From: a virus
Direction: 5' to 3' (one strand)
Length of the DNA stretch: 64,000 bases
IMG/VR virus record: IMGVR_UViG_3300013744_000001
Span: 12,475 to 76,474 of that record
Shown: piece by piece, positions 4,240-64,000 of the stretch
Layout: each line of letters opens with the position of its first letter
Numbering within the stretch: the first letter of the stretch is position 1
Translations under genes and position numbers: made by a program
Notes under the pieces: generated by a model
Database searches by the model: none
What the model was told of the DNA's origin: nothing
Seen by the model: only the letters and a program-made list of their open reading frames with translations

Positions 4240-4240
4240 G

Positions 4241-4282: not shown

Positions 4283-4307
4283 ACTGTATCAACTGATGAG
4301 GATCGCT

Positions 4308-5012: not shown

Positions 5013-5049
5013 GTCGAGCTGATTAATCAACCATGACCATGACCATGGT

Positions 5050-5078
5050 TCATCGAGCCATGGTCATTACATCCCGAC
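5050..5078 (+). other. hairpin (10-bp stem 'ATGACCATGG'/'CCATGGTCAT', 9-nt loop) just downstream of the SSB-like gene stop
   Basis: Inverted repeat seen directly; no U-tract follows, so it is more likely an RNA-stability or attenuation element than an intrinsic terminator. Confidence 0.45.
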
Positions 5079-5087
5079 GAGCGCCGT

Positions 5088-23938: not shown

Positions 23939-24222
23939 CGAAGATTCCCCCTCTTTTCGAGCTTGTTAAAATTTTCTGCTATGTTCTTGAGGTCTCGTGC
24001 CATCTCGTTCAATTTGTTTTCCAGAGTCTTGTACTGATACTGTGATACTGCATTGTCAGTTTTGAGGTTGCTCAGTGTATGCTCTGTCTCATCCACCCTT
24101 CGTTTAATTTCATCTATCTGCATCGTCACCGACCTCAGGGAAACTTTTATCGTTGCATACGCTGTGCCGCAGGAGAAGATGACACAGAGTATCGCCCACA
24201 TGCCGTTCAGCTCGTCAATCAT
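23920..24222 (-). CDS. small membrane-anchored coiled-coil protein (holin/spanin-like; tentative)
   Basis: 'MWAILCVIFSCGTAYATI' TM segment followed by the heptad-like 'IDEIKRRVDETEHTLSNLKTDN...LENKLNEMARDLKNIAENFNKLEK'. Confidence 0.4.
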   Translation of the reverse strand: MIDELNGMWAILCVIFSCGTAYATIKVSLRSVTMQIDEIKRRVDETEHTLSNLKTDNAVSQYQYKTLENKLNEMARDLKNIAENFNKLEKRGNLRWQENA

Positions 24223-34400: not shown

Positions 34401-37400
34401 GTACCGTAGGCGGCAGCAATCAGTTCCTCGGCCTCTTCCTGTGTATCCACAAGTATCAGCGTCTCCGAACCCAGAAGATTGGCCAGACGACTGTCGCTCA
34501 TCAGCCGTGTACGTAGCAACTCTCTCAGAAGCGAGATACCTTTGGTACCTGCGCGACGAACTCTAGCAGCTCTGGTGTTTCGTGAAAACAGAGGCCCTGC
34601 CAGCACACTCACACGTGCGTTCATGGCAACAAGTGCGTCGACATCTTTTACGTCTGGAAGCGGCTTGGTCACTGGAAAACTGCGATTGAACAGATCCTCG
34701 ACCTTGCGCACCAGGTTCTGCATATCTTCCAGTGTCGAATTTCTGTCGTTCATGACCTCAGCAACTTCCTGACCCAGCTCACTGTTACTATCGAGGCGAG
34801 AACCAAGGACACCAGCGTAGATGCGCACGGCGTTGCGATAGAAATTGCGCTCCATCCTGTCGGCGATCTCTTCCAGCGCAGCAGCTTTCTCCTCGGGCGT
34901 TGACAGTTGATTCGCTGCTTCGACCTTTTTAGCCACACCAGAGAGTGCACTCATAGCACCCTTGCTGAGCCTCATCTGCTCCCGAATGGCTGCTTCCAAA
35001 TTTTGAATACGCTCGGTCTGCGTTTTTACAGCAAGTTCCGGTTGACCGGAAGTCACAGCATCTTCTGTACTGACAGACGTTGTCGCCTGGTCGTTGCTAT
35101 GACCCATCGGATGCAGAAGCGACTCATTAACAGAAGAGAAGAAGCCTTTTTTCGACGGCGTCCATGTCCAGCCCTGCGGCTCACCGAGCGGACTGAGGAG
35201 ATGAACATACTCTTTGACCTTGGCCAGAATATCGGCAAAGGGCGTATCCTCGCCGAACATCACAAGACTGTTGTCATTGTTGAACTGACTGAGAATGGCG
35301 TGAACGCTGACCAACTCGCCTGTCGCAGCTTCGGAGTTACGGCCTATATCCTCAAGCTTTGTATCATTGCTGAAAAGCTTTGCCTTGCTGATATCCTTTG
35401 TCCAGTAAATACCCGTATTACCAGACTTGGCAGAAACATACTCCGTTTCCCCGTCAGTGTTTACACGAGCAACAACGCGAGCGTCGATCCAGTTGGTACC
35501 AAAGACACTGCGCAAATCATCGAGACTGGTTGCGTTGAACAAACGTTCGAGTCTTGCAGGGAACGAATCTTCTTCCGCAGACCATTCAATGACGCGGTGC
35601 AGAGGTCGCTTGTCGCCGGTTGTCTTGCCACTCGTACGCCAGACAGCGTAAATCTTTCGTTTCGCACTATCCTTCTGATTGCGAGGATAGACGAAAATGA
35701 TTTCATCAGATACACCGGATTCAACAGGGAGAGAAATAGTCTCATATCCCTGGCGGCTCTTGCCCTGTAAAACACCGACGACATACTCGATACCTTGTCT
35801 GGCGTCGATCTCGTCGGTCATCTCATCCATGAATCTGGTGAGATTACCCTTGGTCAGAAGACGACCACGCTGGTTGCGAAGAATCACCTTGCCGCTATCG
35901 GTGACATAGAGACTTAGTAATGCGCCATTGTCTGTCACAAGAGAACGATAGTTGACATCGTTTCGACCCTCGTCATCAATGATTCTACTGAGACGAAGTC
36001 TGCGAATATCGTCATCGTTAAACTGCCACCAGGCTTTAGAGCCCTTCATCTGTCGCTGTACACGAATGCCTTCGGCAGGTGGACCAATGTAGATGCTCTT
36101 CGCAACCACCGTGCCCTGTCCTTCCTGATTGTTGGCATCGGGCTTGGCGTAAGCTGTGCGGATTTCCTGTCTCGCAACACGGTCATCCAGCTTTATCTGT
36201 GCACCTGTCTCCACATCATAGCCGTCAACCGTGGCATAGAGAGCACTGCTGTTGTTACTCTCGTGAAGCCTTGCATGATAAAGAATACCGTCTTTATAGG
36301 CATAGATGTCCCGACTTCCGATACCTCTGGACTTTCTTGTTTTGGCAGAAACCTGCTCAGGCGAGATGACAAAGTAACCCTGTTCTCTGAGCGTCTGCTC
36401 GATGTTTCTGGTGTCCTGAAGTTCTTCTCGCTTTGTGACGTTGCCGTCGTCATCCGTCTCTTCGACCTCCACCAACTCAAGGAAAGAAGCTCTGGTGCCT
36501 GATGCTCCCTGTCTGGGCACATCGGTCACGACGGGAATGGATACTGCCCCCGCAGGCGCAGTGTCTGTTACAAGCTCGGGAGGCGCAGTACCCTTGTATG
36601 TGTACAGCTCACGTTCCAGATAAGACAGCAGACCCTCATCACTCTGATCCTCGATCTTGCTGGCATCGATGGTCGTGCTCTTGTGAAACACAACCGCATT
36701 GTCGTTTGCATTATGCAGAGCAACGATTCTCTCGATCAGTCTGCCCGAACGATCACCGCGCACCGTAAGCGTCTGACCGGACGAGAATTTGACAGAAGCT
36801 TCGTCATTCTCGTTACGATGCTCTATCTGCTTTGCGTCGATTGTCTTCTTGGTTTGAGGATCGTTGATTGTAGCCAGAAGGCGTAAATATGCCTCGCGAT
36901 CCGAAGAACCTTCGGCAATGTACTTGCCGATAGACACAACACTGTCCTCCTGACCGGTAGCAGCATTTGTCAAACTGTCCCACTCGTACATGCCGTCCTT
37001 GCGTTTGGCATGAGGAAGTGTTGTCACCTCTTTGTCAGACACACCTGCGATAACATCCGTACCATCATCAGTGGGACTGAGATCGTCCCGATTGACACCT
37101 TTGATGTCTGTACGCTTGGGAAAACCGGCAGCAGGTCCAACGTCCAGCGGTCCTTCGTCGTCTCCTCTGATGATGCGATCGTTGAACTCTTTTTCTTCAG
37201 CACGCGATGTCAGTTTGTCCCCTGCCTCGGAAACTGTATGAATGCCTGCACCGGACGCTGCACCGACGAGGAAGGTATCGATACTCCTGTCAACAACGTC
37301 CATCGCACCATAGGTCGCACCCTTCAGGGCAGCAGAACCCATGGCAACATGTTCCTGCGCCGTTTCGGTTACACCTTCAAAGAGAGCGGCTCTGCCGGTG

Positions 37401-38590
37401 CGTTGCAGAATATTCCGATCTGCTTCCCGCATTGCGGCAATCTCTGCCCGCCTTGCCGATATCCTGCTCAGTTCGACTCTCGTGGCATTGCGAGCTGTAA
37501 CACCTCCGCGTGTGAACAAAGCCTTGGCTTCGTTAACAACACCGCCACCAACGACGTTGAGAGTACCGACAATATCCAACGACGCCGACGCAAGACCTGC
37601 GACAAGTGTGCTGGTCGGATGCTCGGGGTCGTAAACACCCTTTGCTCTTTCTTCCCCGCGTATTGCGCCCAGTTCCTGTGCAGAGGCAAAGATGCCCAGA
37701 CCGGTAAGAATACGACGGGCAATGCCCAAGCGCCCCGTCTTGGGAAGGAATCTGGCAACGCCTACAAGACCAAGAGATGGAGCAATCGATGCCCAGTTCT
37801 CGATCAGCATCTCGTTGACCTTGCCGACCAGAGCACCGAAACCCTCTTCCAGAAGCGTTTCTCTGGCACTCTTGCCATACGTCCGCTCATAGTTGCCGTT
37901 TTTGATATCTTCTTCAGTCTTGATCACAGCCTGATTGGCCCAGTCGCTGATCTGCTTCGATCCAAGCTGATCACCCACAAGACCAATAGCATCTGCCCAA
38001 TTCTGCGTAGCCTGCTTGACAGAATGCACAGCAGCACTGTCCCGCTTGACCGTTTCACCTTCCGCATCGGGCAGTGCCAGAGTTTTGGCATTGGACTTCA
38101 GAACCTCATCGACTGTCGTATACTCGTCGATACCCGATTTCTCAAAGAACAGCTTCTTGAAGTTGGCCTTGCTGACACCTTTCAGATACGGGAACTCATA
38201 CTTGGTCGTTCTGCCGATGACCCTGTTGGCCATCTTGTCCATGTAGTAGTCAAGGTTCTCGGTCTTTACCGGGTCCGCTTCGATGAACGCTCTCAAAGTT
38301 TGAAGATTCAGAACATCGTCCGGATTCTCCGATGGCTTCTGCAAACCAAAGGTACTGTGCGCATCGGGGAAGATATCAAAGGTCGTGTTCAATGCAAAGT
38401 CTTCGCGCTCTTCCTTGCTGGCCAGCGTAGGATCGCTCTTGGCAACCTTGAGCGCAGCGCCATATGCCTGCTTGATAGCATGGTCGTAGAGATAATTCTT
38501 CTGCTCGGCACTCAAATCATCGGCGCTGCCTTCAACACCCAGCGCTGCCAAATACGACTGATAATCGAACGTGTCCCTTGAATTTGCCAT
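25442..38590 (-). CDS. giant multidomain (polyvalent-type) protein, 4382 aa, with multiple zincin-like HExxH metallopeptidase motifs; probable virion-packaged / ejected protein
   Basis: Single uninterrupted ORF; terminal gene of an ATGA/1-nt-coupled minus-strand operon. HExxH motifs at 'VLMHELGAHV', 'VLMHEIQHAVQD', 'VFMHEMTENG', 'VMHECSHYGW'. No RNAP DxDGD or helicase motifs were seen. Confidence 0.8.
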   Translation of the reverse strand: MANSRDTFDYQSYLAALGVEGSADDLSAEQKNYLYDHAIKQAYGAALKVAKSDPTLASKEEREDFALNTTFDIFPDAHSTFGLQKPSENPDDVLNLQTLRAFIEADPVKTENLDYYMDKMANRVIGRTTKYEFPYLKGVSKANFKKLFFEKSGIDEYTTVDEVLKSNAKTLALPDAEGETVKRDSAAVHSVKQATQNWADAIGLVGDQLGSKQISDWANQAVIKTEEDIKNGNYERTYGKSARETLLEEGFGALVGKVNEMLIENWASIAPSLGLVGVARFLPKTGRLGIARRILTGLGIFASAQELGAIRGEERAKGVYDPEHPTSTLVAGLASASLDIVGTLNVVGGGVVNEAKALFTRGGVTARNATRVELSRISARRAEIAAMREADRNILQRTGRAALFEGVTETAQEHVAMGSAALKGATYGAMDVVDRSIDTFLVGAASGAGIHTVSEAGDKLTSRAEEKEFNDRIIRGDDEGPLDVGPAAGFPKRTDIKGVNRDDLSPTDDGTDVIAGVSDKEVTTLPHAKRKDGMYEWDSLTNAATGQEDSVVSIGKYIAEGSSDREAYLRLLATINDPQTKKTIDAKQIEHRNENDEASVKFSSGQTLTVRGDRSGRLIERIVALHNANDNAVVFHKSTTIDASKIEDQSDEGLLSYLERELYTYKGTAPPELVTDTAPAGAVSIPVVTDVPRQGASGTRASFLELVEVEETDDDGNVTKREELQDTRNIEQTLREQGYFVISPEQVSAKTRKSRGIGSRDIYAYKDGILYHARLHESNNSSALYATVDGYDVETGAQIKLDDRVARQEIRTAYAKPDANNQEGQGTVVAKSIYIGPPAEGIRVQRQMKGSKAWWQFNDDDIRRLRLSRIIDDEGRNDVNYRSLVTDNGALLSLYVTDSGKVILRNQRGRLLTKGNLTRFMDEMTDEIDARQGIEYVVGVLQGKSRQGYETISLPVESGVSDEIIFVYPRNQKDSAKRKIYAVWRTSGKTTGDKRPLHRVIEWSAEEDSFPARLERLFNATSLDDLRSVFGTNWIDARVVARVNTDGETEYVSAKSGNTGIYWTKDISKAKLFSNDTKLEDIGRNSEAATGELVSVHAILSQFNNDNSLVMFGEDTPFADILAKVKEYVHLLSPLGEPQGWTWTPSKKGFFSSVNESLLHPMGHSNDQATTSVSTEDAVTSGQPELAVKTQTERIQNLEAAIREQMRLSKGAMSALSGVAKKVEAANQLSTPEEKAAALEEIADRMERNFYRNAVRIYAGVLGSRLDSNSELGQEVAEVMNDRNSTLEDMQNLVRKVEDLFNRSFPVTKPLPDVKDVDALVAMNARVSVLAGPLFSRNTRAARVRRAGTKGISLLRELLRTRLMSDSRLANLLGSETLILVDTQEEAEELIAAAYGTAPFYSREGLIQGFVIPETGQVVLVGDGIRVGDAGAVLMHELGAHVRRFGFSDEEFTGILDELKNRQNDDSEEGRQIREAIRRVQEGNRLNSNDRHFWEEVGAYLVEANAGNPTSIVSRIVSWIKTYLYKLSVIDTDSLTNQDIVNFARGAVRTARRGDFDRNVSQTISRNAQIYGLARNLGVPIDELRKELDKIHERTASEESDVQFSFAGERGAAALDNAEAATTRLDNLVVAREMEAANKSVSLIKLATGWERGKDGKWRYELDDSGITVRTNEAIHALAQVVPVALRKIIDAPELFAAYPELQQMRFAYRADDDSRVAGTYFGPKRGIHLRDDLLKKPEKAKQVLMHEIQHAVQDIEGFANGGSVEEAPVNVNREKARENAPGPWLKLMTDKSLLTGYLKTHGISVKANGDLSRKVRIDKYKASSINRLVKLINRLFAVKTPYYNEKRYERDIYRKLYNVGWDHFYDYVRRNVPAFRGMDKTKFDAQWGVVRSWKEEYEQELAAIKWYKSIAGETEARNVETRLDMTATERRESAAYQTEDIAREDQHILEKELRGFVQLFSAHQELRSRSDLMVDFVQTPSFKAWYGDWQTDSSLSPPAVQQAEDGNLVVKNSKGEFKVFDEATPKFSMAISNKPVQYEEMDSGIVHLGPNAKHIVPKESAIPKKLRDKGVVFYSPETISNFNTRFDRLRRYGFIYASLNDRVSSIDALQNIIMRRQQAMLPGTTSADFALGRFINDTFVIDYLSVDREHMSEYVFMHEMTENGVPFVTALAYDEEIDLNEMNNPGLFGFNVSYIGQQYSSGLSRQHKHVYILAENNTPQADIDLYIQQLKARADFVEREITEDDIGEQVSPVPWYSSLAELVGEQSRNLPAAKWLSRLVQWGNESKNRGESSPFNQEVYWTGVREWLEIKDPNDIVEPAELYDFLVGNNVEFKNVMLGGPRSKLGRYARQSVPLDNTDWDLRIRKHESSDYVFAAVSSDLFADQPIAYALLSRLSVHSAGTGIRRVILAINNDDITTLLNNNDVQTRLENILDATFKPVANQQAVGNARKQWAKQFKNYKDAITYFNDWFNQNIYNNPELAYLTSDTSSYLPTHYSGSVMEGRKTDYAELLFYQNKKTPTLEYLHEFVIDPRHWRKEVVNGGLRYTLSEDAMLGRDMHIDYVEKDNKYALTIEVFSDDDFYDISNVSDGTTVTYTTDTLEEALKRASDFVVEQDMNEQLVADEFNQGHFPREGKDLVAHTRFDTRETTDGKRILFVEEVQSDWANDLLFGKLRPEAPYVKYQKAWVTMVAKQVIAHAVEQGDIDGISWTSAEDQSNRWHTMGKRRLEVYQKTLPKAMQNILSDHSPDAKLENVDIQDIGVRQALMLTDEIRNSIQSKGFPLFSIQDTGRSSDETVEGQQIQGAPGVYNRKGGGFAMRYDETVPGHERESLVYGAVLMTDNARDTDLLRALQTSLEADKDLLDSTVGMLVRESQNGESFDRKGIFASMMREVIFEGEENPHFNEVRDALYDAAGLALHVAPSSLSLTDAELLSAANAIGALENNVSEIDVAHPVPPPASELTRNEILDEAIQAGIEENDSVVPEYNADGTASVRTESGNTEYVFEDVNGKDENFRAALDSLSELTTNYDDGTLFSTNEDGTVRKIPGLTTPEELEAFLQRILPPELYEQIEIHWEETRTAKAILRNAFGLFFPYRATDKSIHIRAWDRSIPQVLATVMHECSHYGWTMWGSKALDAEIVRIYNAYTETIYAELPQYFEMLGISDPYLVPDKWKVYLVNEFFAHVNASLMDDSPQIANAFHISDEEYRAMRERLWGVMAEIERKIGNSLLVNIGDRTAIDKFAKDLIALTMGTVVGRGARLIQNTLQSPTGARAPLSKIQIITNDYGQTRRTVPQTREALQVAETREVIRKWGRFFSKGDVIAEFILNNFPMHNRLKGWGFFPSLNVEHAVLGESVGTAYASRLIGNFWNKVSETVASKQRKRFLDLLDLKSALLDAHFDPNLIGGRGNETFAQVFTRLGFAPDSAMMQKARLADATALELSSMKYRNALDIRRAIRGQALELEKRMRIAKIDERTIGRMRKSMAQFESRFHADWDHRMYNVFNGETGVRDLQRLLSYLETDTGAGEMTVNERARDAERIIEAATQQEQAGLITYKQFLSSTRDARTVLKDKERLDALKHYFELRTSNAVKIRAGSDWRTMLLRNMRAEIKQLIMEASRSNNNNGYGEDHLNRISAVRGRTLEDTEEDNFYRTFLDPNTNFFESLLYSVDQQEKILQKLTFNQEMAEHILDTGMGVLRQSIEHDRSYSDSLSWAEDGSILKYVAVDPIFQHALDNEYEVNRNVREAAWSGAIDSMKANSTIYSLRLAVSNHIGSLGILMSSGHLFRIGMMKKAGHVSWKQFADKMLLNSKNLSEAENKFLQMMYKYHIWGATTSDTMMQIRNKGWHEKAIHAIFSYLRDLNVVSNMSQNGLENIVKNALDKMRQFYAFGDEWLKPWVFMNNYNNMLAKHKALTPGLREEQYERLAGKDAAEMTLQETTSWEYTPKLIRHMSMNSIRMITPDFLMHNFQMARITAAIYTRFFDVMEELGKVSARDDVNEPAMKEYKDALTKEAVQRGIGVGLTTATYYGLFGAAKGVIAYLPYALGTMLGAIKLDDDDDERKKRRARSFFYPSEYHGATRITNWLNGGNNLFLPVMRDHDDPYSFFGYNYARNNVMLTHAPIMAATEDPTFEQRIIEAMKNFMDLSQGTMTQELVNNLMGKDKFGREISPAEAATAIGKRMMVPGVMTQILQATVGLPSTDTDFRKGRAIKVPQLAGITVNKYDVRDVTNHLGYFIREQGSLSKNVKKRAFVDDLSKGQPLPARDIAERIAKLREKNREDLNKAVYLLKGIRDFGLSEKEIHKYLTTSRKNAATLVSKDNAMAFLKGQNIFDIMLLNSLEEKKRNLLKSVPTSRMDKDSIDIAIANTDRAIKLMRQSLRISVE

Positions 38591-39622: not shown

Positions 39623-42033
39623 TTCGCACCTCGCAACTTGTTAAGATACGTAGCCCAGTAAATCTTTTCCTCGTTAGCAATGTCCAACCCCGACTGCTGT
39701 AAATTGTCGAGAATTGAAAATACCTCTTCGTCGTTTGCAGCAGAGAGAAGTGCTTTCTTGTCAGCGTCACTAAGCGAAGCAAACTGTGGCGGCTCAACCA
39801 TGGCATCGTCCTGTTGCTCAGGCGTCGGTGTCACAGGCTGAGCAGGCTGAGCAGGCTGAGCAGGCTGAGCAGGCTGAGCAGGCTGAGCAGGCTGAGCAGG
39901 CTGAGCAGGCTGAGCAGGCTGAGCAGACTCCGAATTATTGAAACCTGCAAAATTCAACCATTCATTTGCACCGGCATCCGATATTCTCCCTGCCTTGCGC
40001 AAATTTCCAAGCTGCACTTTGGCATCTTCCAGTGTCGTTGCATTAACCAGATCTCTGCGCTCCGCAAAAGACAGGTCCTTATAAAACGAAGGAAACCTGG
40101 GAGGCTTGTTCGGACCCATCCAGTATGTGTAAGAAGCACCCGGTGCGTTCAACATTGCCCGTTCGCCACGCATAAGATCGTCATTGGACTGGCCCAAGGC
40201 GCTGGACATCAAATCATTTACACCTTCCTTTGTAGCGTCGAGCAGAGGCTTGGCTACTGTGGCAACAGTCGCAGCGCCCCCGCCGAGTCGACCGGCAACT
40301 CCCAGCGCACGCCCGACACCGCCCTTTGCTGCACTGGAAGCGACTGCCTCAGCCGCTTCGGCGGCACCCTTGGCTGCACGGCCTCTGAAATACTTCCACG
40401 CAGCAAGACCGCCGACGCCAATACCAATGCCTGCACCAACACCGATGTTTCTGTCTTTCTTTGACTCTGCCTGAGCTGTTGCAGGTTCGGCAGGCTGCGG
40501 CGTCACTGTCTCTGTCGACGGTTGAGCACCACCAGCATTGCTTGCCTGCTGTCCAGTCTGTGCTTGAGCCTGTGCCTGAGCCTGTTCCTGTTGCTGCAAC
40601 CACAAAGACTTCTGCTGTCCGTGGTGATTCCACGCTTTGTCATAATTATCGATGGTCTTCTGGTCTGGTTGCGACGCAAAATGTTCTTTCAAATAAATGG
40701 TCTTCAAACCTTCGCCATAACCATCGATGTCACCATTCGACCCAGCGACAACTGTTGTTCTGAACTCCTTTGTAAACCTGGCAGGACTACGACCAACGGC
40801 CAACAGCACAGCCAGCGTCGCTTGATCCTCCTCACTCAGATCCATTGCACGCTTCGCAGCCAGCACCCGCTGTGCAAATTCACCCTTCATGTCAACGTAT
40901 CGAGGCATAATACGATTCTTCAGATCGCCGAAGGTTTCGTTTGTTATCTGATAGAACCCGTTGGCCGTAGAGTCGGGATCATTTGACACAGCCTGACCGT
41001 CACCGCGGGATTCTGCGTACTTGACAATGTTCAAATAATCGTTGAATACCTCCTTGACAATAGCAGGCGACACACCCTGTTGCTGAGCAACTTTCGAAAC
41101 AAAGCCATTCATAAGTTCGTTGTCGCCTATGAGATCAAACTCTCCCTGATCAGTGGCGGCTGAAGCAGCTTTGATATTATTGTCTGCGGGTTTCAACCCC
41201 GCAGGATTCTTGCCACCTGCCATAGCTGCAAGCTGCGAAAGTACGTCCTCTGCGCCCTGACTGTCCTGCTGCGCCCGACTTTGTCGATACATACGATCGG
41301 ATTCATTGAATTTCAAAAGTGTATTCTCCGTATCAATTTCAGCTTTGGTAGTAAAGTCAAGCGCCTTGGCCTCAGCTTCCAGAACGGCCTTGTTGTTTTC
41401 GTACTGCTGACGCTTGTGCTCGTTCCTCAGCTTCTGCAACTCAAGCAATGTGTTCGTATACTGCTCATCCAGTTTGCCCAGCTTATCGATGGTTGCCATA
41501 TCATGTTGCAACCTGCGTTCCTCACGCTCAGCGGCACTGGCTCTGGCCATCTCGTACCCGGCCATGATAGATGTGAGCGTAGGTGCCGGGATATTCGACT
41601 GCTGCTGAAGAAATGCAAGGGTTTTATCGTTCAGAACACCTGCGAACTTGGTGAAATGTTCGTTATATCTCTCCTGTAACGTCTGAATCTCCTGTGCACG
41701 TCTGGCGTAAAGTGCCTGCTGATTGCTGATACCGGCAAGCCCTGCCTCGATATCGAGGTCAGCTATGGCCATGTTCTGCTTCGCAGCACGTGTGGCAAGC
41801 CTGGTTGTCTCGCCCTGATACCGTTTGATGATCTGTCGCATACGACCGGCGAAAGTATTAGCAGCTTTATCTGCCCGCTGCTGAATATCCTTGTTCAATC
41901 GCTCCTGATCGCTCGTCGGTCTGATCAGTTGGAAACGAAGACGCTCCTTTCCAGCCTCGGCCAGTTGCTCCTTGTTCTGCGCCTGCACCTGTGCCTGTTG
42001 CTGCACCGGAAGCGGTGTTGGGATGTCAGCCAT
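39619..42033 (-). CDS. large coiled-coil / lytic-transglycosylase-like / transmembrane protein with C-terminal (AQP)n repeat; tape-measure- or ejection-protein-like
   Basis: N-terminal ~350 aa Gln/Glu-rich coiled coil; SLT-like 'VKYAESRGDGQAVSNDPDSTANGFYQITNETF' (E-S ... SxAxGxxQI); hydrophobic 'IGVGAGIGIGVGGLAAW'; C-terminal 'AQPAQPAQP...' repeat. Confidence 0.55.
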   Translation of the reverse strand: MADIPTPLPVQQQAQVQAQNKEQLAEAGKERLRFQLIRPTSDQERLNKDIQQRADKAANTFAGRMRQIIKRYQGETTRLATRAAKQNMAIADLDIEAGLAGISNQQALYARRAQEIQTLQERYNEHFTKFAGVLNDKTLAFLQQQSNIPAPTLTSIMAGYEMARASAAEREERRLQHDMATIDKLGKLDEQYTNTLLELQKLRNEHKRQQYENNKAVLEAEAKALDFTTKAEIDTENTLLKFNESDRMYRQSRAQQDSQGAEDVLSQLAAMAGGKNPAGLKPADNNIKAASAATDQGEFDLIGDNELMNGFVSKVAQQQGVSPAIVKEVFNDYLNIVKYAESRGDGQAVSNDPDSTANGFYQITNETFGDLKNRIMPRYVDMKGEFAQRVLAAKRAMDLSEEDQATLAVLLAVGRSPARFTKEFRTTVVAGSNGDIDGYGEGLKTIYLKEHFASQPDQKTIDNYDKAWNHHGQQKSLWLQQQEQAQAQAQAQTGQQASNAGGAQPSTETVTPQPAEPATAQAESKKDRNIGVGAGIGIGVGGLAAWKYFRGRAAKGAAEAAEAVASSAAKGGVGRALGVAGRLGGGAATVATVAKPLLDATKEGVNDLMSSALGQSNDDLMRGERAMLNAPGASYTYWMGPNKPPRFPSFYKDLSFAERRDLVNATTLEDAKVQLGNLRKAGRISDAGANEWLNFAGFNNSESAQPAQPAQPAQPAQPAQPAQPAQPAQPAQPVTPTPEQQDDAMVEPPQFASLSDADKKALLSAANDEEVFSILDNLQQSGLDIANEEKIYWATYLNKLRGAK
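39834..39926 (-). repeat. in-frame 9-bp tandem repeat (GCTCAGCCT)n, ~10-11 copies, encoding (AQP)n
   Basis: Plus strand '(caggctgag)n' read directly at 39841-39925. Confidence 0.9.
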
Positions 42034-48916: not shown

Positions 48917-49642
48917 TCATTTTTGTTCTACCTGCCGTGCACCGGCACGAACAAGGGCTTCATACATGCTGGTAATCAATTCCTTTCGCTGTTGATAAGG
49001 TACTCGCGCACCAACGAGTACCAAATCATGCTCTTCAATTTTAGCCAAAATATCCAACGTTTCTTTGTCCAAACCATGTCTGTCCTGCTTGTCACAACCA
49101 AACATGATTTGGTTTATCATACGCGCCTCATTTGAATAATCATAAAACTTGGGCTCTTTGCCGTCTGCTTCCTTTGCAAACTTAATTGTATCACACAGCA
49201 CTTTGTACGAACTCGCCGCCTGATGCCGAAGTCGCCACCACTCCTGTCGAGGATGTTTGTTACGCAAAATTTTCTCAATCTGAATGTCGCACCATATGCC
49301 AAATCTTGGCGAACACCATCGCGCAAACAGAACAGCAAGCCGAGGATGAAGCCACGTTCCACCATGCTTTCCGCGTTTTGTTTTTATAAAAAATTTCGAC
49401 GTAATTTCGGGCACTTGTAAATACCCGGAATTCCGGGTATTTACAAGTTGTTGATTTTCCGATGTTATTTTACATAGTTCTGCAATATACTCCCGTGTAT
49501 CTTCGTTAGCCAACCAATGATCTACACGCTTGCCAAAATGAACACCCACCTCAGTAGCATTGAACCAGCCTTCGTCCCCGAAAGAGATCTCAATGCCCTC
49601 GTACTCAGAAATCATAAGTTCTTCCATACCGTCCTCCATCAC
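48917..49642 (-). CDS. KilA-N domain protein with antirepressor-type C-terminal domain (241 aa)
   Basis: 'ISEYEGIEISFGDEGWFNATEVGVHFGKRVDHWLANEDTREYIAELCK...GGTWLHPRLAVLFARWCSPRF'. Confidence 0.7.
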   Translation of the reverse strand: MMEDGMEELMISEYEGIEISFGDEGWFNATEVGVHFGKRVDHWLANEDTREYIAELCKITSENQQLVNTRNSGYLQVPEITSKFFIKTKRGKHGGTWLHPRLAVLFARWCSPRFGIWCDIQIEKILRNKHPRQEWWRLRHQAASSYKVLCDTIKFAKEADGKEPKFYDYSNEARMINQIMFGCDKQDRHGLDKETLDILAKIEEHDLVLVGARVPYQQRKELITSMYEALVRAGARQVEQK

Positions 49643-49660: not shown

Positions 49661-50419
49661 TTACTTCAACATAGATATAATACTTTCCTTCCAGCGCAAC
49701 TGTTGAACCATCGAACCGTCGTGATGTGCCTTGCCTGTATCCAGAATAACAGCGTAGGCTCTGCCCTTCTCGGTCGGTCGCCATTCGTTACGCTCATTCT
49801 TGAACTGAAAACCCTCTTCGGCTAATAGAAGATTGGCGTGCCTGGCGGCCTTTCGTCCAATACCCATGTGTAACCGTTCGCCGATCTCTGTCGCCAGTAG
49901 ATAGTTGCTGTTGTCCTCGGCAATCAGCTTTACATCCAGCTCCGCCTGAAAGTCGATGCCGGTTCGTTTCCTTGTGGTAACATTGGCAGAAATCAAAGCC
50001 CTATTTCCGCTCAATCCAAACGCCTCAGCAACTCGCTTCAGCGCTAAAAACTCCCGTTCCGCAAACTCAATGGGAATAGGCTGAGATATCGAAGGCGACT
50101 CATATTTCCCAGTTTTGCGAATAGCTGGGAGCACCTCAGACGTTACCCATTCAATAAACGGTTCTGCCTGCGGCTTGTCCGACCTGAGCACAAGTCGATA
50201 TAACCCAGACTCAGAAATAACGGAAATTCGCTGCTTTCCACCAAGGGTGTCAGTCAGGCTGACACCCTTGTGGTGATCGGGTATTCTTGCAAGGGCTTGG
50301 CCAACATTGTCCAAGCCCAAAATGTCACAGATGTCCTTGGCGACGAACCAAGGCTCTCCGTCTTTGATCACAGTACGAACCTGACTTTGGTTAAAATTGA
50401 ATACTGTTACTTCGTTCAT
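49661..50419 (-). CDS. Bro-N domain antirepressor-family protein (252 aa)
   Basis: 'MNEVTVFNFNQSQVRTVIKDGEPWFVAKDICDILGL...'; RBS 'TACAAGGAGGAATC-ATG' is identical to the two neighbouring Bro genes. Confidence 0.75.
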   Translation of the reverse strand: MNEVTVFNFNQSQVRTVIKDGEPWFVAKDICDILGLDNVGQALARIPDHHKGVSLTDTLGGKQRISVISESGLYRLVLRSDKPQAEPFIEWVTSEVLPAIRKTGKYESPSISQPIPIEFAEREFLALKRVAEAFGLSGNRALISANVTTRKRTGIDFQAELDVKLIAEDNSNYLLATEIGERLHMGIGRKAARHANLLLAEEGFQFKNERNEWRPTEKGRAYAVILDTGKAHHDGSMVQQLRWKESIISMLK

Positions 50420-50881: not shown

Positions 50882-51625
50882 TTACTTCAATACATCAAGA
50901 ACAGTTTCCTTCCACTTCAACTGCTGAATCATGACACCGGAGCTGTGACGTTTGCCTGTATCCAAAAGCACCGCATGAACCTTGCCCTTCTCTGTCGGCA
51001 ACCATTGCCCGCCGGACTTGACCTGATAACCTCCGATCTCAAGCAGCTTGTTTACCTCCCTCGGTCCGGAGAGATGCAGCATCTCAGCAATCTGAGTGGG
51101 TGAAAAGAAATATTTCTGGTCGGGGTTCTTCAACTCGATCTGCAAGGTCTGAAGCAACGAGATACCATGCTCCCTGCGAATGGCATTGTCGGCAGAGACG
51201 ATGGCCGCATTCCCTTCCAACCCGCAGAGCTCGGCCACAGCCTTCAACGCCGCAAACTCGCGGGCCGCCACCTCTTTGTTCAAAAGCTCAGACCGTGGCA
51301 GGACATACGCACCGGTTTTACGAATAGTTGGGAGTACTTCCGATGTTACCCACTTGCGAAATGCCTGAGCCTCGGGCTTCCGGGATTTGAAAACAAGTGC
51401 ATAAAGCCCAGACTCAGAAATGACGGACATTCGCTGACTTCCGCCAAGGGTACGTATACTGTACGTACCCTTTTCATCGTCACCTAACGACTGAACTGTC
51501 TGACTCACATCTGTCAGCTCCAGAATATCGCAGATATCCTTGGCCACAAACCAAGGCTCTCCGTCTCTGACCACTGTGCGCACCTCATGTTGGTCCTGAA
51601 AATTGAATACTGTTACTGCGTCCAT
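50882..51625 (-). CDS. Bro-N domain antirepressor-family protein (247 aa)
   Basis: 'MDAVTVFNFQDQHEVRTVVRDGEPWFVAKDICDILELTDVSQ...'; same RBS. Confidence 0.75.
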   Translation of the reverse strand: MDAVTVFNFQDQHEVRTVVRDGEPWFVAKDICDILELTDVSQTVQSLGDDEKGTYSIRTLGGSQRMSVISESGLYALVFKSRKPEAQAFRKWVTSEVLPTIRKTGAYVLPRSELLNKEVAAREFAALKAVAELCGLEGNAAIVSADNAIRREHGISLLQTLQIELKNPDQKYFFSPTQIAEMLHLSGPREVNKLLEIGGYQVKSGGQWLPTEKGKVHAVLLDTGKRHSSGVMIQQLKWKETVLDVLK

Positions 51626-51671
51626 GATTCCTCCTTGTAACGTGATAAAAGATCGAACTGCCCATCCTGTC

Positions 51672-51699
51672 ATTATACCATGGTCTATCTTTTAGGCAA
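51672..51699 (-). promoter_or_regulatory. sigma-70-like promoter for the Bro gene (-35 TTGCCT, 16-nt spacer, -10 TATAAT)
   Basis: Read on the minus strand: 'TTGCCTaaaagatagaccatggTATAAT'. Confidence 0.5.
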
Positions 51700-59069: not shown

Positions 59070-59364
59070 GAAAAACGCACAGTTTTGTAACTGATGTCAT
59101 ACCTTGGCACGTGGCGACTATGCGCCAATTACGCTGACATTTGTCTACAATGTGAAGATATAATATCAGAGGCACTTTGTTTTTGCCATTTTTTAACATT
59201 TACAATGCGTGGGGTTCAATATCAAGACCAAGCCCCCGGCTGCAAAACCACAAAGCCCCCAATGGCCCATGTCGCCCGCCAGAGGGCCAGAGGGCCACAA
59301 CAAAAATCAATACAAAGCCGCGAAATACCATGTAACTATGCGATATCATTATTGAAAAAAATTG

Positions 59365-59393
59365 TTGACAAAAAATTGTGAACGCCGTATAGT
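59365..59393 (+). promoter_or_regulatory. near-consensus sigma-70 promoter (-35 TTGACA, 17-nt spacer, -10 TATAGT) driving the GC-rich moron
   Basis: 'attgTTGACAaaaaattgtgaacgccgTATAGTgtgg' read directly. Confidence 0.6.
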
Positions 59394-59435
59394 GTGGCCA
59401 TCACTAGGCATAGTGCCTGGTGACACGGCCTGGTG

Positions 59436-59452
59436 CTTGTGACGGTCACAAG
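59436..59452. promoter_or_regulatory. palindromic motif copy 1 'CTTGTGACGGTCACAAG' in the 5' leader of the 59504 gene
   Basis: 8-bp inverted repeat with a 1-nt centre; the same motif occurs 7 times in 59.4-63.4 kb. Confidence 0.7.
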
Positions 59453-59503
59453 CGCGCATGGCCACATAATACACAGGGAGCGAGGCTCCCAAGGAGCACT
59501 ACC

Positions 59504-60274
59504 ATGGCACGTAACAACAAGACCACCTCCGCCACCTCCACCACCACCACCGTCAAAATGTTACTGTTGGCGGTGGTAGACGCTTGCCGTGAGTCCACGG
59601 CGGCGTCACAACTGGCCGGCCAAGCCCTAGCCGGCGCCACCAGGGCCACTCAGGAGGCGCTTGATGCGATCCTGAGTGGCGTAGTGCCGGATCCGCGCAA
59701 GCCGGATCCGGCTAAAGTGCAGGCCTGTTGGCAGGCCTTGGACAAGGCCTTGCAGGCCGCAGGCTTGCCGAACTCCACAACTTGCCGGCGCGCGGAAATT
59801 GCAGAGTCCGCGCCGGACGAAGCGCGCGCTGCAGCGCGCATAGCTGCGGCTCTGTCGCAGCGCCTATCGCGCGCAACCAAGGCCGCCGTCAAGGCGGCTT
59901 GCGAGGACGGCCGCAAAACCGTCCGCTCTGGCAATATGTCGCCAGAGCGCGCAGAGACCGTCTTGACCAAGCGCCTCGCCGGTGTCCAATTGACGGACGC
60001 CGACAAAAAGGCTCTGCACGACGCATGCAGAGCAGGCGCAGGACTCACGGTGTCACCTGTAGCAATCCAGCCACAAGTAACGCCTGCAATTGCCAGCAAT
60101 CTGCTGGCGTCATGCCAGCGGATTGCAGACACTCTGCCACCACGTGAGGCGCTGGCAGAGGTAATGCGCATGTTGGAGAATGCGCTTGGAGAGACTACCA
60201 ATCTGCCGGTGACGCCCACGCCGGCAGAGACCAAGGCAAGAGCGCGAACTAGGCGCAAGCTCAAAGCCGCGTAA
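59504..60274 (+). CDS. Ala-rich hypothetical protein encoded by a GC-rich moron (256 aa; basic C-terminus 'KARARTRRKLKAA')
   Basis: AAGGAG RBS 8 nt upstream of the ATG at 59504. Local GC is visibly much higher than the window average. Own promoter upstream and intrinsic terminator downstream. Confidence 0.5.
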   Translation: MARNNKTTSATSTTTTVKMLLLAVVDACRESTAASQLAGQALAGATRATQEALDAILSGVVPDPRKPDPAKVQACWQALDKALQAAGLPNSTTCRRAEIAESAPDEARAAARIAAALSQRLSRATKAAVKAACEDGRKTVRSGNMSPERAETVLTKRLAGVQLTDADKKALHDACRAGAGLTVSPVAIQPQVTPAIASNLLASCQRIADTLPPREALAEVMRMLENALGETTNLPVTPTPAETKARARTRRKLKAA

Positions 60275-60293
60275 AGCGCGGCGTTGAGACCAA

Positions 60294-60326
60294 GCCCCCT
60301 AGCAGCAATGCCAGGGGGCTTTTTTG
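60294..60326 (+). terminator. rho-independent terminator
   Basis: Stem 'GCCCCCT'...'AGGGGGC' followed by TTTTTTG. Confidence 0.75.
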
Positions 60327-60331
60327 TATCC

Positions 60332-60424
60332 TGATGCCATGATGCCATGATGCCATGATGCCATGATGCCATGATGCCATGATGCCATGATGCCATGATG
60401 CCATGATGCCATGATGCCATGATG
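60332..60424. repeat. tandem array of ~11.5 copies of the 8-bp unit 'GATGCCAT' (CATG every 8 bp)
   Basis: Read directly: '(gatgccat)n'. Confidence 0.9.
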
Positions 60425-60440
60425 CTTGTGACCGTCACAA
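60425..60440. promoter_or_regulatory. palindromic motif copy 2 'CTTGTGACCGTCACAA' between the two 8-bp arrays, followed by 'TATAATAATA'
   Basis: Read directly. Confidence 0.65.
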
Positions 60441-60450
60441 TATAATAATA

Positions 60451-60547
60451 GTGGCATAGTGGCATGGTGGCATGGTGGCATGGTGGCATGGTGGCATAGT
60501 GGCATAGTGGCATGGTGGCATGGTGGCATGGTGGCATGGTGGCATGG
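60451..60547. repeat. second tandem array of ~12 copies of the related 8-bp unit 'GTGGCATG' (variant GTGGCATA)
   Basis: Read directly; the unit differs from array 1 at 2 of 8 positions. Confidence 0.9.
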
Positions 60548-60563
60548 CTTGTGACCGTCACAA
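60548..60563. promoter_or_regulatory. palindromic motif copy 3 'CTTGTGACCGTCACAA' closing the second array
   Basis: Read directly. Confidence 0.65.
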
Positions 60564-61107
60564 CTGCGCGCTTAGTAGGAAGTGGGTGATGGCGACATGC
60601 TCTGAAGTGAGTGCTTTGAGGCCTTGACACTGGACACTTTGACGCTCGAACTCTTAAATTTAAGGCCTTTTGATAAATTATACATACACCAAAAGGGTTT
60701 TCGTGTATGTATATATGAATGACGAAAAGTTTTTAATTTTTGCCGTAAATGTTGGAATAAACATTTCATCATTTTTCCCCAACTCTTAAATAATTAAGTG
60801 TTAACACAAAATTGTATATGGTACTCTGCACCATATAAACTTTAATCATAAGTAAAATTGATACTTCTGACTCTTTCCAGAGCCAACTCTTTAAAACTTT
60901 TGATGAAATGTTTATTCTAAAATTCCATAGAAAAAATAAAAACTTTATATCAAAATCAAACTAAAATCATAGTTCAATTCCGCTAAACATCAAAAAAACT
61001 GGAGTTCCCCCTACGTCTACCATTCAAAAAACTGATGGATTACCTTGAGGTTCAAAAATTTGTATCAAAAAAATTGATGGATTTTAAGTTAATTTTAAGG
61101 CCCGATC

Positions 61108-61144
61108 TGTTAAATTTAAAACCGACCATTTAAATTTAACAGAG
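61108..61144. other. 14-bp perfect inverted repeat 'CTGTTAAATTTAAA'...'TTTAAATTTAACAG' (7-nt spacer) in the AT-rich non-coding region
   Basis: Read directly; 'TTAAATTTAA' also recurs at ~60655 and (degenerate) ~60787. Confidence 0.6.
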
Positions 61145-61164
61145 CAACCACTTGAAAATAAATG

Positions 61165-61193
61165 TTGACAAATTATTGTAAATAGGATATAAT
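61165..61193 (+). promoter_or_regulatory. perfect consensus sigma-70 promoter (-35 TTGACA, 17-nt spacer, -10 TATAAT)
   Basis: 'aaatgTTGACAaattattgtaaataggaTATAATatagg' read directly; drives the plus-strand gene set starting at 61342. Confidence 0.65.
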
Positions 61194-61277
61194 ATAGGCA
61201 CAAAATAAAAAAAGGACCAGGGCAAAACCGACCTGGTCCGAACATCAAAAGCTCTGGTACAACCACACGGAACAGAG

Positions 61278-61294
61278 CTTGTGACGGTCACAAG
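61278..61294. promoter_or_regulatory. palindromic motif copy 4 'CTTGTGACGGTCACAAG', ~50 nt upstream of the 61342 start, preceded by hairpin 'GGACCAGG..CCTGGTCC'
   Basis: Read directly. Confidence 0.7.
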
Positions 61295-61341
61295 CGAAAA
61301 AGCCAGGGCGACAAAGGGACAAAGTCCCAGGGAGAAAAACC

Positions 61342-62121
61342 ATGTCAACGTCCACCCTCACTTCCTCCAACGCTATTTCTGCCACTCACCCGTTCCTGTC
61401 CGCTTCTGTCTTGCTCGATAGGACAGAGCAGACAATCAATCGTACTCTGTCTCAGATCGTAGCCGTAGACGATCTGGAATCGGAGTCGTCCTTGGCAGGC
61501 TCTGTTTTCTGGCGGATCAAGGATCTGCTCGATGAAGGCAGAGACACCATGACAGAGCAGGAGCGGCTCTGTCATATACAGTCTACGCTCCAAGCTTGGG
61601 CCACTAGTGCCATGCCTGACAGCATTGCTCATCAAGTTTGCCAAGCCTGCCTCAATAGCCTTGTGACTGTCACAAGGCGCAAGGCCTTAGTCATTCTCAA
61701 TCATCCGCTTTCACAGGAGCAGGTCGAGGATCTGGACAAGGCTTGGGGCGTCAGCTTTGACGCCATCATCACTCTTCCTTCAGAGCTCAAAAGTTTGTGG
61801 GCGAACATTCCGCCCGAAGCTGACGACATACAGGTATGCATGCATGTCCAGCCCGTCATCAATTGGGCCAGGAGCAGGGACATTGGCCTGCTGTCTGGCG
61901 ACATGATTATTATAGGCGGTGAGCTGGTAGCTACGCTTGCCGTCATAGCAGGCATGGACAAGGACATCCTGCCCGTGTGCGCAACCACTAGGCGCGAATC
62001 TGTCGAGAAGACCATGCCGGATGGTAGCGTTCAGAAAACGAACGTGTTCCGTCACGTTCGATTCAGACAGATACCAATACCAATACCAATACCAATACCA
62101 ATACCAGTATCGACAAGGTAA
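61342..62121 (+). CDS. hypothetical protein (259 aa) with C-terminal (IP)6 repeat
   Basis: 'CAGGGAGAAAAACC-ATG' RBS. Possible Rossmann-like core 'ALVILNHPLSQEQ...MIIIGGELVATLAVIAG', not assignable. Contains palindromic motif copy 5 at ~61659-61677. Confidence 0.55.
   Translation: MSTSTLTSSNAISATHPFLSASVLLDRTEQTINRTLSQIVAVDDLESESSLAGSVFWRIKDLLDEGRDTMTEQERLCHIQSTLQAWATSAMPDSIAHQVCQACLNSLVTVTRRKALVILNHPLSQEQVEDLDKAWGVSFDAIITLPSELKSLWANIPPEADDIQVCMHVQPVINWARSRDIGLLSGDMIIIGGELVATLAVIAGMDKDILPVCATTRRESVEKTMPDGSVQKTNVFRHVRFRQIPIPIPIPIPIPVSTR
62071..62106 (+). repeat. hexanucleotide tandem repeat (ATACCA)6 encoding (IP)6
   Basis: Read directly. Confidence 0.9.
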
Positions 62122-62130
62122 CATAACCAG

Positions 62131-62171
62131 CTTCACGGTGGCACATTGTCTATCGATGTGCCACCGTGAAG
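62131..62171 (+). other. 16-bp perfect inverted repeat hairpin 'CTTCACGGTGGCACAT'..'ATGTGCCACCGTGAAG' (9-nt loop) just after the 61342 gene stop
   Basis: Read directly; no U-tract, so it is a terminator-like or processing hairpin. Confidence 0.55.
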
Positions 62172-62212
62172 CGAACCATACACCACATACCAAAGACAAA
62201 GGACACAACGTC

Positions 62213-62629
62213 ATGGATACGAAAGGCAAGAACGCAAAAACTCGCTGGCAGGAATTCTGCACCACGGCCCATCACTGGCTGTGGGTACAGATCCTGGCCT
62301 GGCGTTACGCCCGTACGCTCTTTCCTGCCCATGACGTCATCAAGGGTATCAACATCCTTGTCTTTGGCGATAAGCAGGCTACGACATGGCATCGTAAGTA
62401 CTCAAGGCACCATACCGTAGTCATCAATCCTTCCTTCAAGGCTATCATATCAGGCGCAGGCCCAATCGATATTCGAAACAAGATCGAAGCCGCTATCGAT
62501 TGGGAATCTGCCAGATATACCAAGCCGGATAAGCCACTGACGGCTTACGAAACATGGCTTAGGTACTATCGTCATATCGACATGGTAGATACGCTCAAGA
62601 CCTTGGGCTTGTGGGGCAAGGTACATTAA
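62213..62629 (+). CDS. hypothetical protein (138 aa from ATG 62213)
   Basis: AAAGGA RBS; the track ORF 62021..62629 5' extension overlaps the upstream gene and hairpin. Confidence 0.45.
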   Translation: MDTKGKNAKTRWQEFCTTAHHWLWVQILAWRYARTLFPAHDVIKGINILVFGDKQATTWHRKYSRHHTVVINPSFKAIISGAGPIDIRNKIEAAIDWESARYTKPDKPLTAYETWLRYYRHIDMVDTLKTLGLWGKVH

Positions 62630-62632
62630 TAT

Positions 62633-62651
62633 CCTTATGACAGTCACAAGG
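62633..62651. promoter_or_regulatory. palindromic motif copy 6 'CCTTATGACAGTCACAAGG', ~30 nt upstream of the 62684 start
   Basis: Read directly. Confidence 0.65.
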
Positions 62652-62683
62652 ATGCAAACACAACCAGAATAAAGGAGAATACC

Positions 62684-63325
62684 ATGAACGAGACTCTGAT
62701 TGATCTGACTAATATTGCGGCTTACTATGCAGAGCCCAAAGACTTTTTCATATCCAGAGGTATGAGCCCCGATCCTTTCGACGCATACGATGGGATCGCA
62801 TGGGACAAGGTAAACAACACGATTGTCCGCACGTGCATGGGTGAGCCTAGGAAAAACTGCAAGCTCTACAGTCTTACCGACAAGGACATTGCTGCGCTTA
62901 ACGGCATGCTTGAGGACAGACTGATGGCGGAGACTGAGCAGCAAGAGTACGAGGACTATCTGCAAAAGGTAGCCAAGCCGCGGTTCGATCGAGCCCTTTC
63001 CTTCCTCCAAAGCCTGGCACCATACGTCAGGCACGAACGCTATGACGGCTATGTCAAAGGCAATGCAGAGTGGCAGTTTGTCATGCGCAATAACCGCAGA
63101 ATTGTCGTCATGCCTACAGATAGCCATGCTAAAGGCTTCATGGCTTATCCCATGGAAGAACCGATCTTGACTGTAGAATCGTTTGTCGATCAGGAGCTGT
63201 CCGACGACGAAATTCTGTCGGAAGCGATTAGTGCCATTGACAGACTTTGGCACGAACATGTTCAGGAGAAGACCAGGCGTTCCGATCCTGTTCTCGGAAC
63301 ATCCTTTTGGACAAAGCATATATAA
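62684..63325 (+). CDS. hypothetical protein (213 aa)
   Basis: AAAGGAGAATACC-ATG RBS. Confidence 0.55.
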   Translation: MNETLIDLTNIAAYYAEPKDFFISRGMSPDPFDAYDGIAWDKVNNTIVRTCMGEPRKNCKLYSLTDKDIAALNGMLEDRLMAETEQQEYEDYLQKVAKPRFDRALSFLQSLAPYVRHERYDGYVKGNAEWQFVMRNNRRIVVMPTDSHAKGFMAYPMEEPILTVESFVDQELSDDEILSEAISAIDRLWHEHVQEKTRRSDPVLGTSFWTKHI

Positions 63326-63348
63326 GTAACATAACCAGCTTCACGGTG

Positions 63349-63367
63349 CCTTGTGACGGTCACAAGG
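63349..63367. promoter_or_regulatory. palindromic motif copy 7 'CCTTGTGACGGTCACAAGG', ~35 nt upstream of the 63401 start
   Basis: Read directly; immediately preceded by the 23-bp direct repeat 'GTAACATAACCAGCTTCACGGTG' (also at 62118-62140). Confidence 0.7.
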
Positions 63368-63862: not shown

Positions 63863-64000
63863 ATGGAACGAGCTGGAAAGATGCCTGTCATTTACGATTC
63901 TGGTTGGGTCAGAGAACCGGACGATGACAACGAGTATGACAACGAGTATGACAACGAGTATGACAACGAGTATGACAACGAGTATGACAACGAGTATGAC
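63863..64000 (+). CDS. partial CDS (3' end outside window) containing a (DNEY)n repeat
   Basis: AAGGAG RBS; 'MERAGKMPVIYDSGWVREPDDDNEYDNEYDNEY...' encoded by a 12-bp tandem repeat 'GACAACGAGTAT' x >=6 from ~63923 to the window end. Confidence 0.45.
   Translation, partial: MERAGKMPVIYDSGWVREPDDDNEYDNEYDNEYDNEYDNEYDNEYD

Follow-up and report, generated by a model that had tools for sequence, protein, structure and literature searches.

Tandem repeat arrays at the late/early junction

The stretch of DNA analyzed here (the window) comprises 64,000 nucleotides, positions 12,475 to 76,474, of the IMG/VR record IMGVR_UViG_3300013744_000001. It belongs to an uncultivated phage with a genome of ~76 kb, of which ~12 kb lie outside the window. 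Genes are located on the plus strand from 1 to 20 kb and on the minus strand from 20 to 59 kb, and early genes follow on the plus strand from 59.5 kb. Because of this layout, two arrays of tandemly repeated 8-bp units located between positions 60332 and 60547 fall into a divergent late/early control region. They follow the gene gpA (59504..60274, plus strand) and an intrinsic terminator on the same strand (60294..60325), which consists of a GC hairpin at 60294-60319 and a T6 tract (-23.1 kcal/mol). The terminator hairpin is kept in relatives with compensatory changes. Downstream of the arrays, a conserved non-coding block (…AGGAAGTG…GGCGACATGCTYTGAAGT…GACAYTGG…, 60564..60660), recognized in an alignment of 8 relatives, leads into an AT-rich non-coding region (60640..61160). 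Both a strong terminator just before the arrays and an AT-rich non-coding stretch after them had been reported in a preliminary description of this locus and are found as described, the latter with 27-32% GC compared with ~50% in the genome.

Array 1 consists of 11.8 copies of TGATGCCA (60332-60425) with a period of 8 and 100% matches according to Tandem Repeats Finder. Array 2 comprises 12.1 copies of GTGGCATG (60451-60547), likewise with a period of 8 and with 96% matches; its unit has A as an alternative base (GTGGCATG/A). Both arrays end directly in GCTTGTGACCGTCACAA, and reading of the sequence places the cores of two palindromes at 60426-60440 and 60549-60563. The first of these, pal1 (GCTTGTGAC-C-GTCACAA, 60424..60440), is kept by all near relatives with C, A or T as the central base, and pal2, which has the same sequence and is located beside array 2 (60547..60563), is kept in relatives as well. 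A copy of TTGTGACCGTCACAA abuts each array. Between the arrays, pal1 is followed by TATAATAAT-A. The spacer TATAATAAT (60441..60449) is also kept in relatives and is -10-like, without a convincing -35 element on either strand. A sigma70 promoter at this spacer was rejected, as the plus strand has no -35 element and the minus strand shows only a 9/12 match, which is not kept in the related locus L005.

Tandem Repeats Finder and the sequence itself thus confirm the earlier observation of two arrays of ~12 8-bp units that are separated and closed by a palindrome. The preliminary description had further stated that CATG occurs every 8 bp. The period of 8 holds for both arrays, but array 2 contains nine CATG over ~12 units and has CATA in four units. 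A CRISPR array had rightly been dismissed, as the 8-bp units are contiguous and spacers are absent, whereas CRISPR arrays combine repeats of 24-48 bp with unique spacers. Perfect repeats are prone to mis-assembly. However, array 2 matches unit for unit in the independent assemblies ERZ1757549 and ERZ1757551 of the same strain, which argues against an assembly artefact. This confirmation covers array 2; other assemblies break within array 1.

Variation among related loci

Exact-pattern and protein searches for relatives returned two IMG/VR contigs and 34 gpA homologues at 67-100% identity, and no further relatives were returned from metagenome and genome collections. Twelve related loci were readable across or into the array region, and the protein of the flanking gene is 67-91% identical in the compared relatives. 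The order of elements in these loci is terminator, array, palindrome, TATAATAAT, array, palindrome, conserved block and AT-rich DNA. All near relatives retain the terminator, the palindromes, TATAATAAT, the conserved block, the AT-rich region and the second of two early promoters described below.

In contrast to these conserved flanks, the arrays are highly variable between close relatives. Array 1 ranges from one unit to 15-17 units, and array 2 from complete absence to ~32-35 units. The shortest form of array 1 is the single unit of L034 (TTGCCATG-GTGC), whose contig ends at array 2. L025 has two units in array 1 and ~4 units in array 2, and L033 has ~3 units in array 1 and a 16-bp unit repeated 4.7 times in array 2. 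The closest distinct relative, L031, contains ~5 copies of the window's unit in array 1 and ~6 units in array 2, compared with 12 units in each array of the window. In both L005 and L004, array 1 harbors 15 CATG units organized as a 28-bp super-unit; array 2 is (GTGCATG)x13 in L005 and ~260 bp long with 32 CATG in L004. The distant L018 possesses (GTCTYT)x8.5 without any CATG at the position of array 1 and lacks array 2, and L023 carries three array-palindrome-TATAATAAT modules. Periods of 6, 7, 8, 9, 11, 16-17 and 28 bp occur at this locus, some of them mixed within one array, and CATG spacings of 7, 8, 9 and 11 bp are mixed inside single arrays. CATG has decayed to CATA, CGTG, CTTG or TATG in some units, and the arrays finish in partial units that merge with the flank of the palindrome.

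The arrays had initially been proposed to be iterated binding units of a replication origin, a pac site or a protein-nucleation site, and high variability among close relatives had been named as the sign of a neutral microsatellite. As the arrays of relatives differ in copy number, unit length and unit sequence, this proposal could not be upheld, and by the same standard the arrays are microsatellite-like. The comparison gives no support for a fixed array of iterons, pac sites or ribbon-helix-helix (RHH) binding sites.

The array-1 8-mer was also encountered in an unrelated viral contig (L007, 255-348; L008, 3621-3700), in which it occurs on the opposite strand as (CATCATGG)x11.8 right after TGATATAAT. 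This contig, which carries genes for a Ser/Thr-kinase-like protein and a polyQ zinc-finger protein, has the appearance of a giant eukaryotic virus. The array was judged to be a chance recurrence of the unit.

The two arrays are not the only ones of their kind in the window, contrary to the preliminary description. Perfect arrays are also located at 39834-39926 (CAGGCTGAG x10.3, a 9-bp unit in frame within an 804-aa open reading frame (ORF)), at 62071-62106 (ATACCA x6, a 6-bp unit encoding IPIPIP where the first early gene ends) and at 63924-64000 (ATGACAACGAGT in at least 6.4 copies, a 12-bp unit in frame at the window edge), all of them in coding sequence. The N-terminus of gpA and several early ORFs contain in-frame repeats that differ between relatives. 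Upstream of gpA, Tandem Repeats Finder identified a further variable-number repeat, GCCAGAGG x2.5 (59278..59297). It is present in at least 14 copies in L004 and at least 6.9 copies in L005, and in the form of variant units in L026 and L033. In total, 8 of the 29 Tandem Repeats Finder rows fall within 59.2-64 kb. Genic units, with lengths of 6, 9, 12 or 24 bp, are always divisible by three, whereas this mostly does not hold for the intergenic units of 6, 7, 8, 11, 16-17, 20, 21 or 28 bp.

Assemblies from many samples break at the arrays and yield ~1.1-kb contigs with gpA only and 3.6-kb contigs that span the interval between the arrays and the 12-mer repeat at 63924, which forms a second assembly breakpoint in other samples. 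Pieces of 72.8 kb and 3.6 kb together match the 76.5-kb contig, and the IMG/VR contigs begin inside the GCCAGAGG locus. The breaks at the arrays are explained by the repeats themselves; the strain with only 2.5 copies of GCCAGAGG assembles through the GCCAGAGG locus.

Origin of the arrays

The arrays are probably (at a probability of about 0.6) hypervariable slipped-strand tandem repeats that were seeded from the CATG-containing flank of the palindrome, in a non-coding early control region. They consist of head-to-tail perfect or near-perfect copies, their copy number varies while the flanks are conserved, their units are replaced between relatives, and other repeat loci are present in the same genome. 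These are properties of variable-number tandem repeats. The minimal forms in L034 and L025 contain a short CATG-containing flank before each palindrome (…CCATGGTGC-TTGTGAC), and in the window a GGTGC flank also precedes the palindrome in the gpA leader. The array-palindrome modules may have arisen by duplication of an operator copy, and the ancestral left flank of the palindrome would have been something like TTGCCATGGTGC or CATGGTGC. We infer that this flank was repeatedly expanded, contracted and replaced through replication slippage. Such slippage would yield perfect, recently homogenized arrays whose unit and copy number are strain-specific, and it may be favored by the hairpin-forming palindromes and by pairing of the two oppositely oriented CATG tracts. 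In that case, the phage would not need the arrays as a fixed group of binding sites. The arrays would be tolerated, fast-evolving DNA that at most serves as a spacer or tunes how far apart the terminator, both palindromes and the origin-like AT-rich region lie. The conserved scaffold of gpA terminator, palindromes, TATAATAAT, conserved block and AT-rich region is presumably functional.

The closest described phenomenon, together with bacterial variable-number repeats and microsatellites, are the perfect and fast-evolving tandem repeats of Borg extrachromosomal elements (PMC9879509). As in Borgs, the units are arranged perfectly head to tail and are flanked by partial units, and both units and copy numbers turn over rapidly between close relatives, with units of independent origin. 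In both systems, repeats also occur within genes and between them, the unit length being a multiple of three inside genes and mostly not outside, and short-read assemblies break at them. Unlike Borgs, the element is a phage of ~76 kb, its units are not A-rich, and its two largest arrays flank operator-like palindromes and have a CATG core in common.

Several observations weigh against dispensable slippage products. Of the 12 related loci, 11 possess an array of some kind where array 1 lies (in L034 there is only one unit), and all eight near relatives whose sequence spans the site of array 2 have an array there. The fact that the units arose independently, with CATG types on the one hand and GTCTYT on the other, suggests either a strong local mutational hot spot or selection for an array. 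Furthermore, across ~17 unit types ~90% of the units keep CATG, and the remaining 3-7 nt are variable; this could reflect a constraint on the CATG core instead of microhomology-driven slippage. The identity of array 2 in the window and the two assemblies of the same strain shows that it is not wildly unstable. Finally, L031 and the window both have arrays that agree with each other in period and copy number and that pair with one another over their length.

If the arrays are indeed slippage repeats of this kind, they belong to an ordinary type of feature, found here in a phage lineage not yet described. They would explain the splitting of metagenomic assemblies of this phage into ~1.1, 3.6 and 70 kb pieces and would be usable as strain markers. 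The more informative biology lies in the scaffold, that is the multi-copy early palindrome, the two consensus host promoters and the conserved AT-rich region.

Alternative functions of the arrays

As arrays are nearly always present and CATG is retained in most units, selection for a CATG-core tract was kept under consideration. The arrays could be functional multi-site protein-binding tracts in which a phage or host dimer binds the CATG-core site, nucleates from the palindromes and controls the origin-like region or early transcription, with copy number acting as an evolvable rheostat. We regard this as unlikely. Tandem binding by TrpR or MetJ and plasmid centromeres are models for such dimer binding, and the MetJ met-boxes and ParG tetramer boxes are short-repeat arrays of RHH proteins. 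A precedent is provided by the RHH protein omega (ParB) of pSM19035, which binds contiguous heptads (5'-WATCACW-3', 7-10 per parS) and needs at least four contiguous repeats (PMC9499535). Like RHH arrays, those of the window contain ~10 copies of contiguous 7-8-bp repeats, direct or inverted, beside promoters or operators, namely the operator-like palindromes, and the AT-rich region adjoins them. CATG is kept across many unit types, as expected of a binding core. RHH arrays, however, have a fixed period and a conserved unit. A constant period with at least four conserved contiguous units is found in the window alone, whereas relatives show mixed periods within arrays and unconserved units. The one or two units of L034 and L025 fall below the number needed at parS, and the unit of L018 lacks CATG altogether. 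CATG is also not unusual elsewhere in the genome (observed/expected 0.97 outside the arrays), and no RHH, ParA or Rep protein was detected with Pfam and PHROG among the proteins of the window, including the early region, with ~12 kb of the genome lying outside it. Should selection on the arrays nevertheless be demonstrated, this would provide a case of repeat number serving as an evolvable control in the regulatory region of a phage.

A connection to genome termini or packaging is improbable, although the position of the arrays would fit. They lie at the junction of leftward late and rightward early genes with inward-facing strong sigma70 promoters, which is the usual position of the ends in phages with direct terminal repeats. 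Short-repeat arrays reportedly occur beside the terminal repeats of T7, as Dunn and Studier are said to have described in 1983. The arrays also resemble P1 pac in that two groups of short repeats that contain a palindromic tetranucleotide surround a central segment at an early/late junction. In P1 pac, seven TGATCA/G hexamers with Dam sites are located within 161 bp and two clusters flank the cleavage site (PMC10028697). The P1 hexamers are few, spaced, conserved and located inside pacA, whereas the repeats of this phage are contiguous, hypervariable and far from the terminase genes, with TerL (12102-13784) and a putative TerS both ~48 kb away in the window. Neither the sequence nor the number of repeats is conserved, and the contig breaks are accounted for by the repeats. 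Unlike in P1, no matching methylase was found in the phage, whose methyltransferase is a C5-cytosine enzyme and not a CATG adenine methylase. Methylation or restriction at CATG was rejected for the same reason and on account of the unremarkable frequency of CATG outside the arrays.

It is still less probable that the structure formed by the arrays is their function. The arrays are mutually complementary and together make up an imperfect inverted repeat of ~200 nt centred on pal1-TATAATAAT, which might form a cruciform or a long hairpin in single-stranded DNA or RNA and act in replication initiation or priming or as a structured transcript. Eleven stacked helices of 6-7 bp are predicted, with -79.6 kcal/mol (z = -8.1) for the DNA fold and -115.5 kcal/mol (z = -6.6) for the minus-strand RNA fold across the arrays. 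The arrays cross-pair in six of eight relatives. This pairing follows automatically from the palindromic CATG core, though, and the arms are unequal in L004, L005, L025 and L033. Cross-pairing is missing in L025 and L033, and array 2 is absent in L018. A promoter search and manual inspection identified no convincing promoter on either strand. The Rfam search of the region gave no match at gathering thresholds, and the microRNA-precursor matches, all far below these thresholds, merely mirror the long hairpin made by the two arrays.

The remaining explanations are very improbable even when taken together. Besides the assembly artefact discussed above, a Chi-like anti-RecBCD tract was considered, as array 2 (CATGGTGG) has TGGTGG in common with Escherichia coli Chi (GCTGGTGG). 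Array 2 agrees with Chi at no more than 6 of 8 positions, however, neither array 1 nor the units of relatives are Chi-like, and canonical Chi occurs only three times in the window. The minus strand is open across the arrays and would encode MASWHHGI and MPPCHHAT repeats, i.e. a His-rich repeat peptide. However, the length of the units is not divisible by three and differs from relative to relative, and a ribosome-binding site is absent, in agreement with the earlier view that the region is not sensibly coding.

A further, speculative possibility, which we regard as doubtful, combines several of these elements. The CATG arrays and the two gene-less palindromes could constitute a nucleoprotein or cruciform element, tunable by copy number, which sets the activity of the AT-rich region or titrates an early-region repressor and is kept expanded by a Borg-like repeat-generating propensity peculiar to this phage lineage.

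The operator-like palindrome

The palindrome TTGTGAC-N-GTCACAA is present in seven copies in the window (59437, 60426, 60549, 61279, 61661, 62635 and 63351), all of them within 59437-63365 in the early region. The search pattern matched 15 times on both strands, compared with 2.3 matches expected by chance, in line with the earlier suggestion of a recurring regulatory-type site. The full form, (G/C)CTTGTGAC-N-GTCACAAG(G/C) with a length of 15-21 bp, is restricted to the early region. Five copies are located in leaders or intergenic gaps 35-48 nt before start codons, or within the first early ORF. They include GCTTGTGAC-G-GTCACAAGC in the 5' leader of gpA (59435..59453) and the copy in the leader of the early operon (61277..61295). 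Most copies precede early start codons and follow two near-consensus sigma70 promoters. The two palindromes that adjoin the arrays are extra, gene-less copies of this site. Relatives retain the palindrome sites, including the copy within an MJ1673-like ORF. L004 harbors nine copies in 7.4 kb (234-7097), and the distant L018 contains a symmetric variant, TGTGTGAC-N-GTCACACA. A match in L002 is a chance occurrence in coding DNA.

Judged by sequence and placement, the palindrome looks like a multi-copy operator or a 'stoperator'-like regulatory site. The stoperators of mycobacteriophages are multiple repressor sites in transcribed early regions and consist of asymmetric 13-mers. The palindrome, and not the arrays, resembles them in that its copies, at least 7-9 in number, are restricted to the early region and lie in leaders, in intergenic gaps and in one case inside an ORF. 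It differs in its 7-1-7 to 10-1-10 palindromic form. N4-type hairpin promoters were also considered for the palindrome and rejected. The 4382-aa virion protein of the phage, described below, matches only LPD23 and no RNA polymerase structure, and the early operons have consensus sigma70 promoters.

The AT-rich region as a candidate origin

The AT-rich region (27-32% GC, ~500-570 bp) is present in relatives and contains conserved islands such as GAGCCAACTCTTTAAAACTTTTGATGAAATGTTTATTC. It also harbors a 46-nt inverted repeat (60726-60771 paired with 60901-60946) and a hairpin (TATACATACAC…GTGTATGTATA). Short iteron-like repeats in this region differ by lineage, with TTAAATTTAA in the window and TTAATGAGTC or GTGTTACGA in relatives. 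No DnaA boxes were found in 59.1-64 kb, which includes the AT-rich region. The GC skew is flat at ~52-64 kb, a signal that is confounded by the switch of the coding strand in this interval.

Iteron origins, such as lambda ori and plasmid Rep iterons with an inverted-repeat operator, contain few repeats of 17-22 bp with fixed spacing that are conserved together with their initiator. The locus resembles them in its direct repeats with a related palindrome and an AT-rich neighbor, beside a gene of no known family (gpA), and an adjacent AT-rich stretch that could unwind is found in all relatives. In contrast to iterons, the array units are 6-11 bp long, their sequence, number and spacing vary between relatives, and no Rep-like protein was recognized. 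The AT-rich region is plausibly a better candidate for an origin or control element than the arrays. This conserved region is the best candidate for an origin or for early/late control.

gpA, early promoters and the phage genome

The gpA gene has a GC content of 62-67%, compared with 50% in the genome, and encodes a protein of 256 aa that is predicted to be all-helical. No Pfam family matched gpA, and its AlphaFold2 model (pLDDT 74.5) has no fold match in the PDB. A role of gpA as initiator or repressor gained no support from this all-helical model without a PDB match. The gene possesses its own promoter and terminator and has tandem repeats on either side, an arrangement that can be described as a moron-like cassette. 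Among the early-region proteins no Pfam or PHROG DNA-binding domain was found.

The gpA promoter (TTGACA-17-TATAGT, 59365..59393, plus strand) matches the sigma70 consensus at 11 of 12 positions, and the promoter of the main early operon (TTGACA-17-TATAAT, 61165..61193, plus strand) at all 12; both are kept in all relatives. Because these two conserved, perfect or near-perfect sigma70 promoters face the early genes, host RNA polymerase evidently starts early transcription. After two early genes, a perfect 23-nt direct repeat, GTAACATAACCAGCTTCACGGTG, is located at 62118-62140 and 63326-63348. Its first copy leads into a hairpin with a perfect 17-bp stem (62130-62172) and its second copy into an operator palindrome.

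No close isolate phage was identified: no matching DNA was returned, the identity of the polymerase to its matches does not exceed 37%, and TerL had one hit at 23%. The window encodes a family-A DNA polymerase, an exonuclease, a helicase, ThyX, an Enc34-type single-stranded DNA-binding protein and TerL, as well as a portal-like protein, an internal virion protein and several Bro-N/KilA-type genes. Four paralogous genes match anti-repressor (Ant) PHROG families and a fifth carries KilA-N. These genes (17476-18222, 24219-24983, 49661-50419, 50882-51673 and 48917-49642) are spread over the replication and structural modules. The 4382-aa ORF at 25442-38590 on the minus strand contains LPD23 ('large polyvalent protein') as its sole confident domain and matched no solved structure by sequence; its product is presumably a giant virion or ejected protein. 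The C5-cytosine DNA methyltransferase gene is located at 18228-19082, and both CTAG and CGCG are underrepresented in the window (observed/expected ~0.6).

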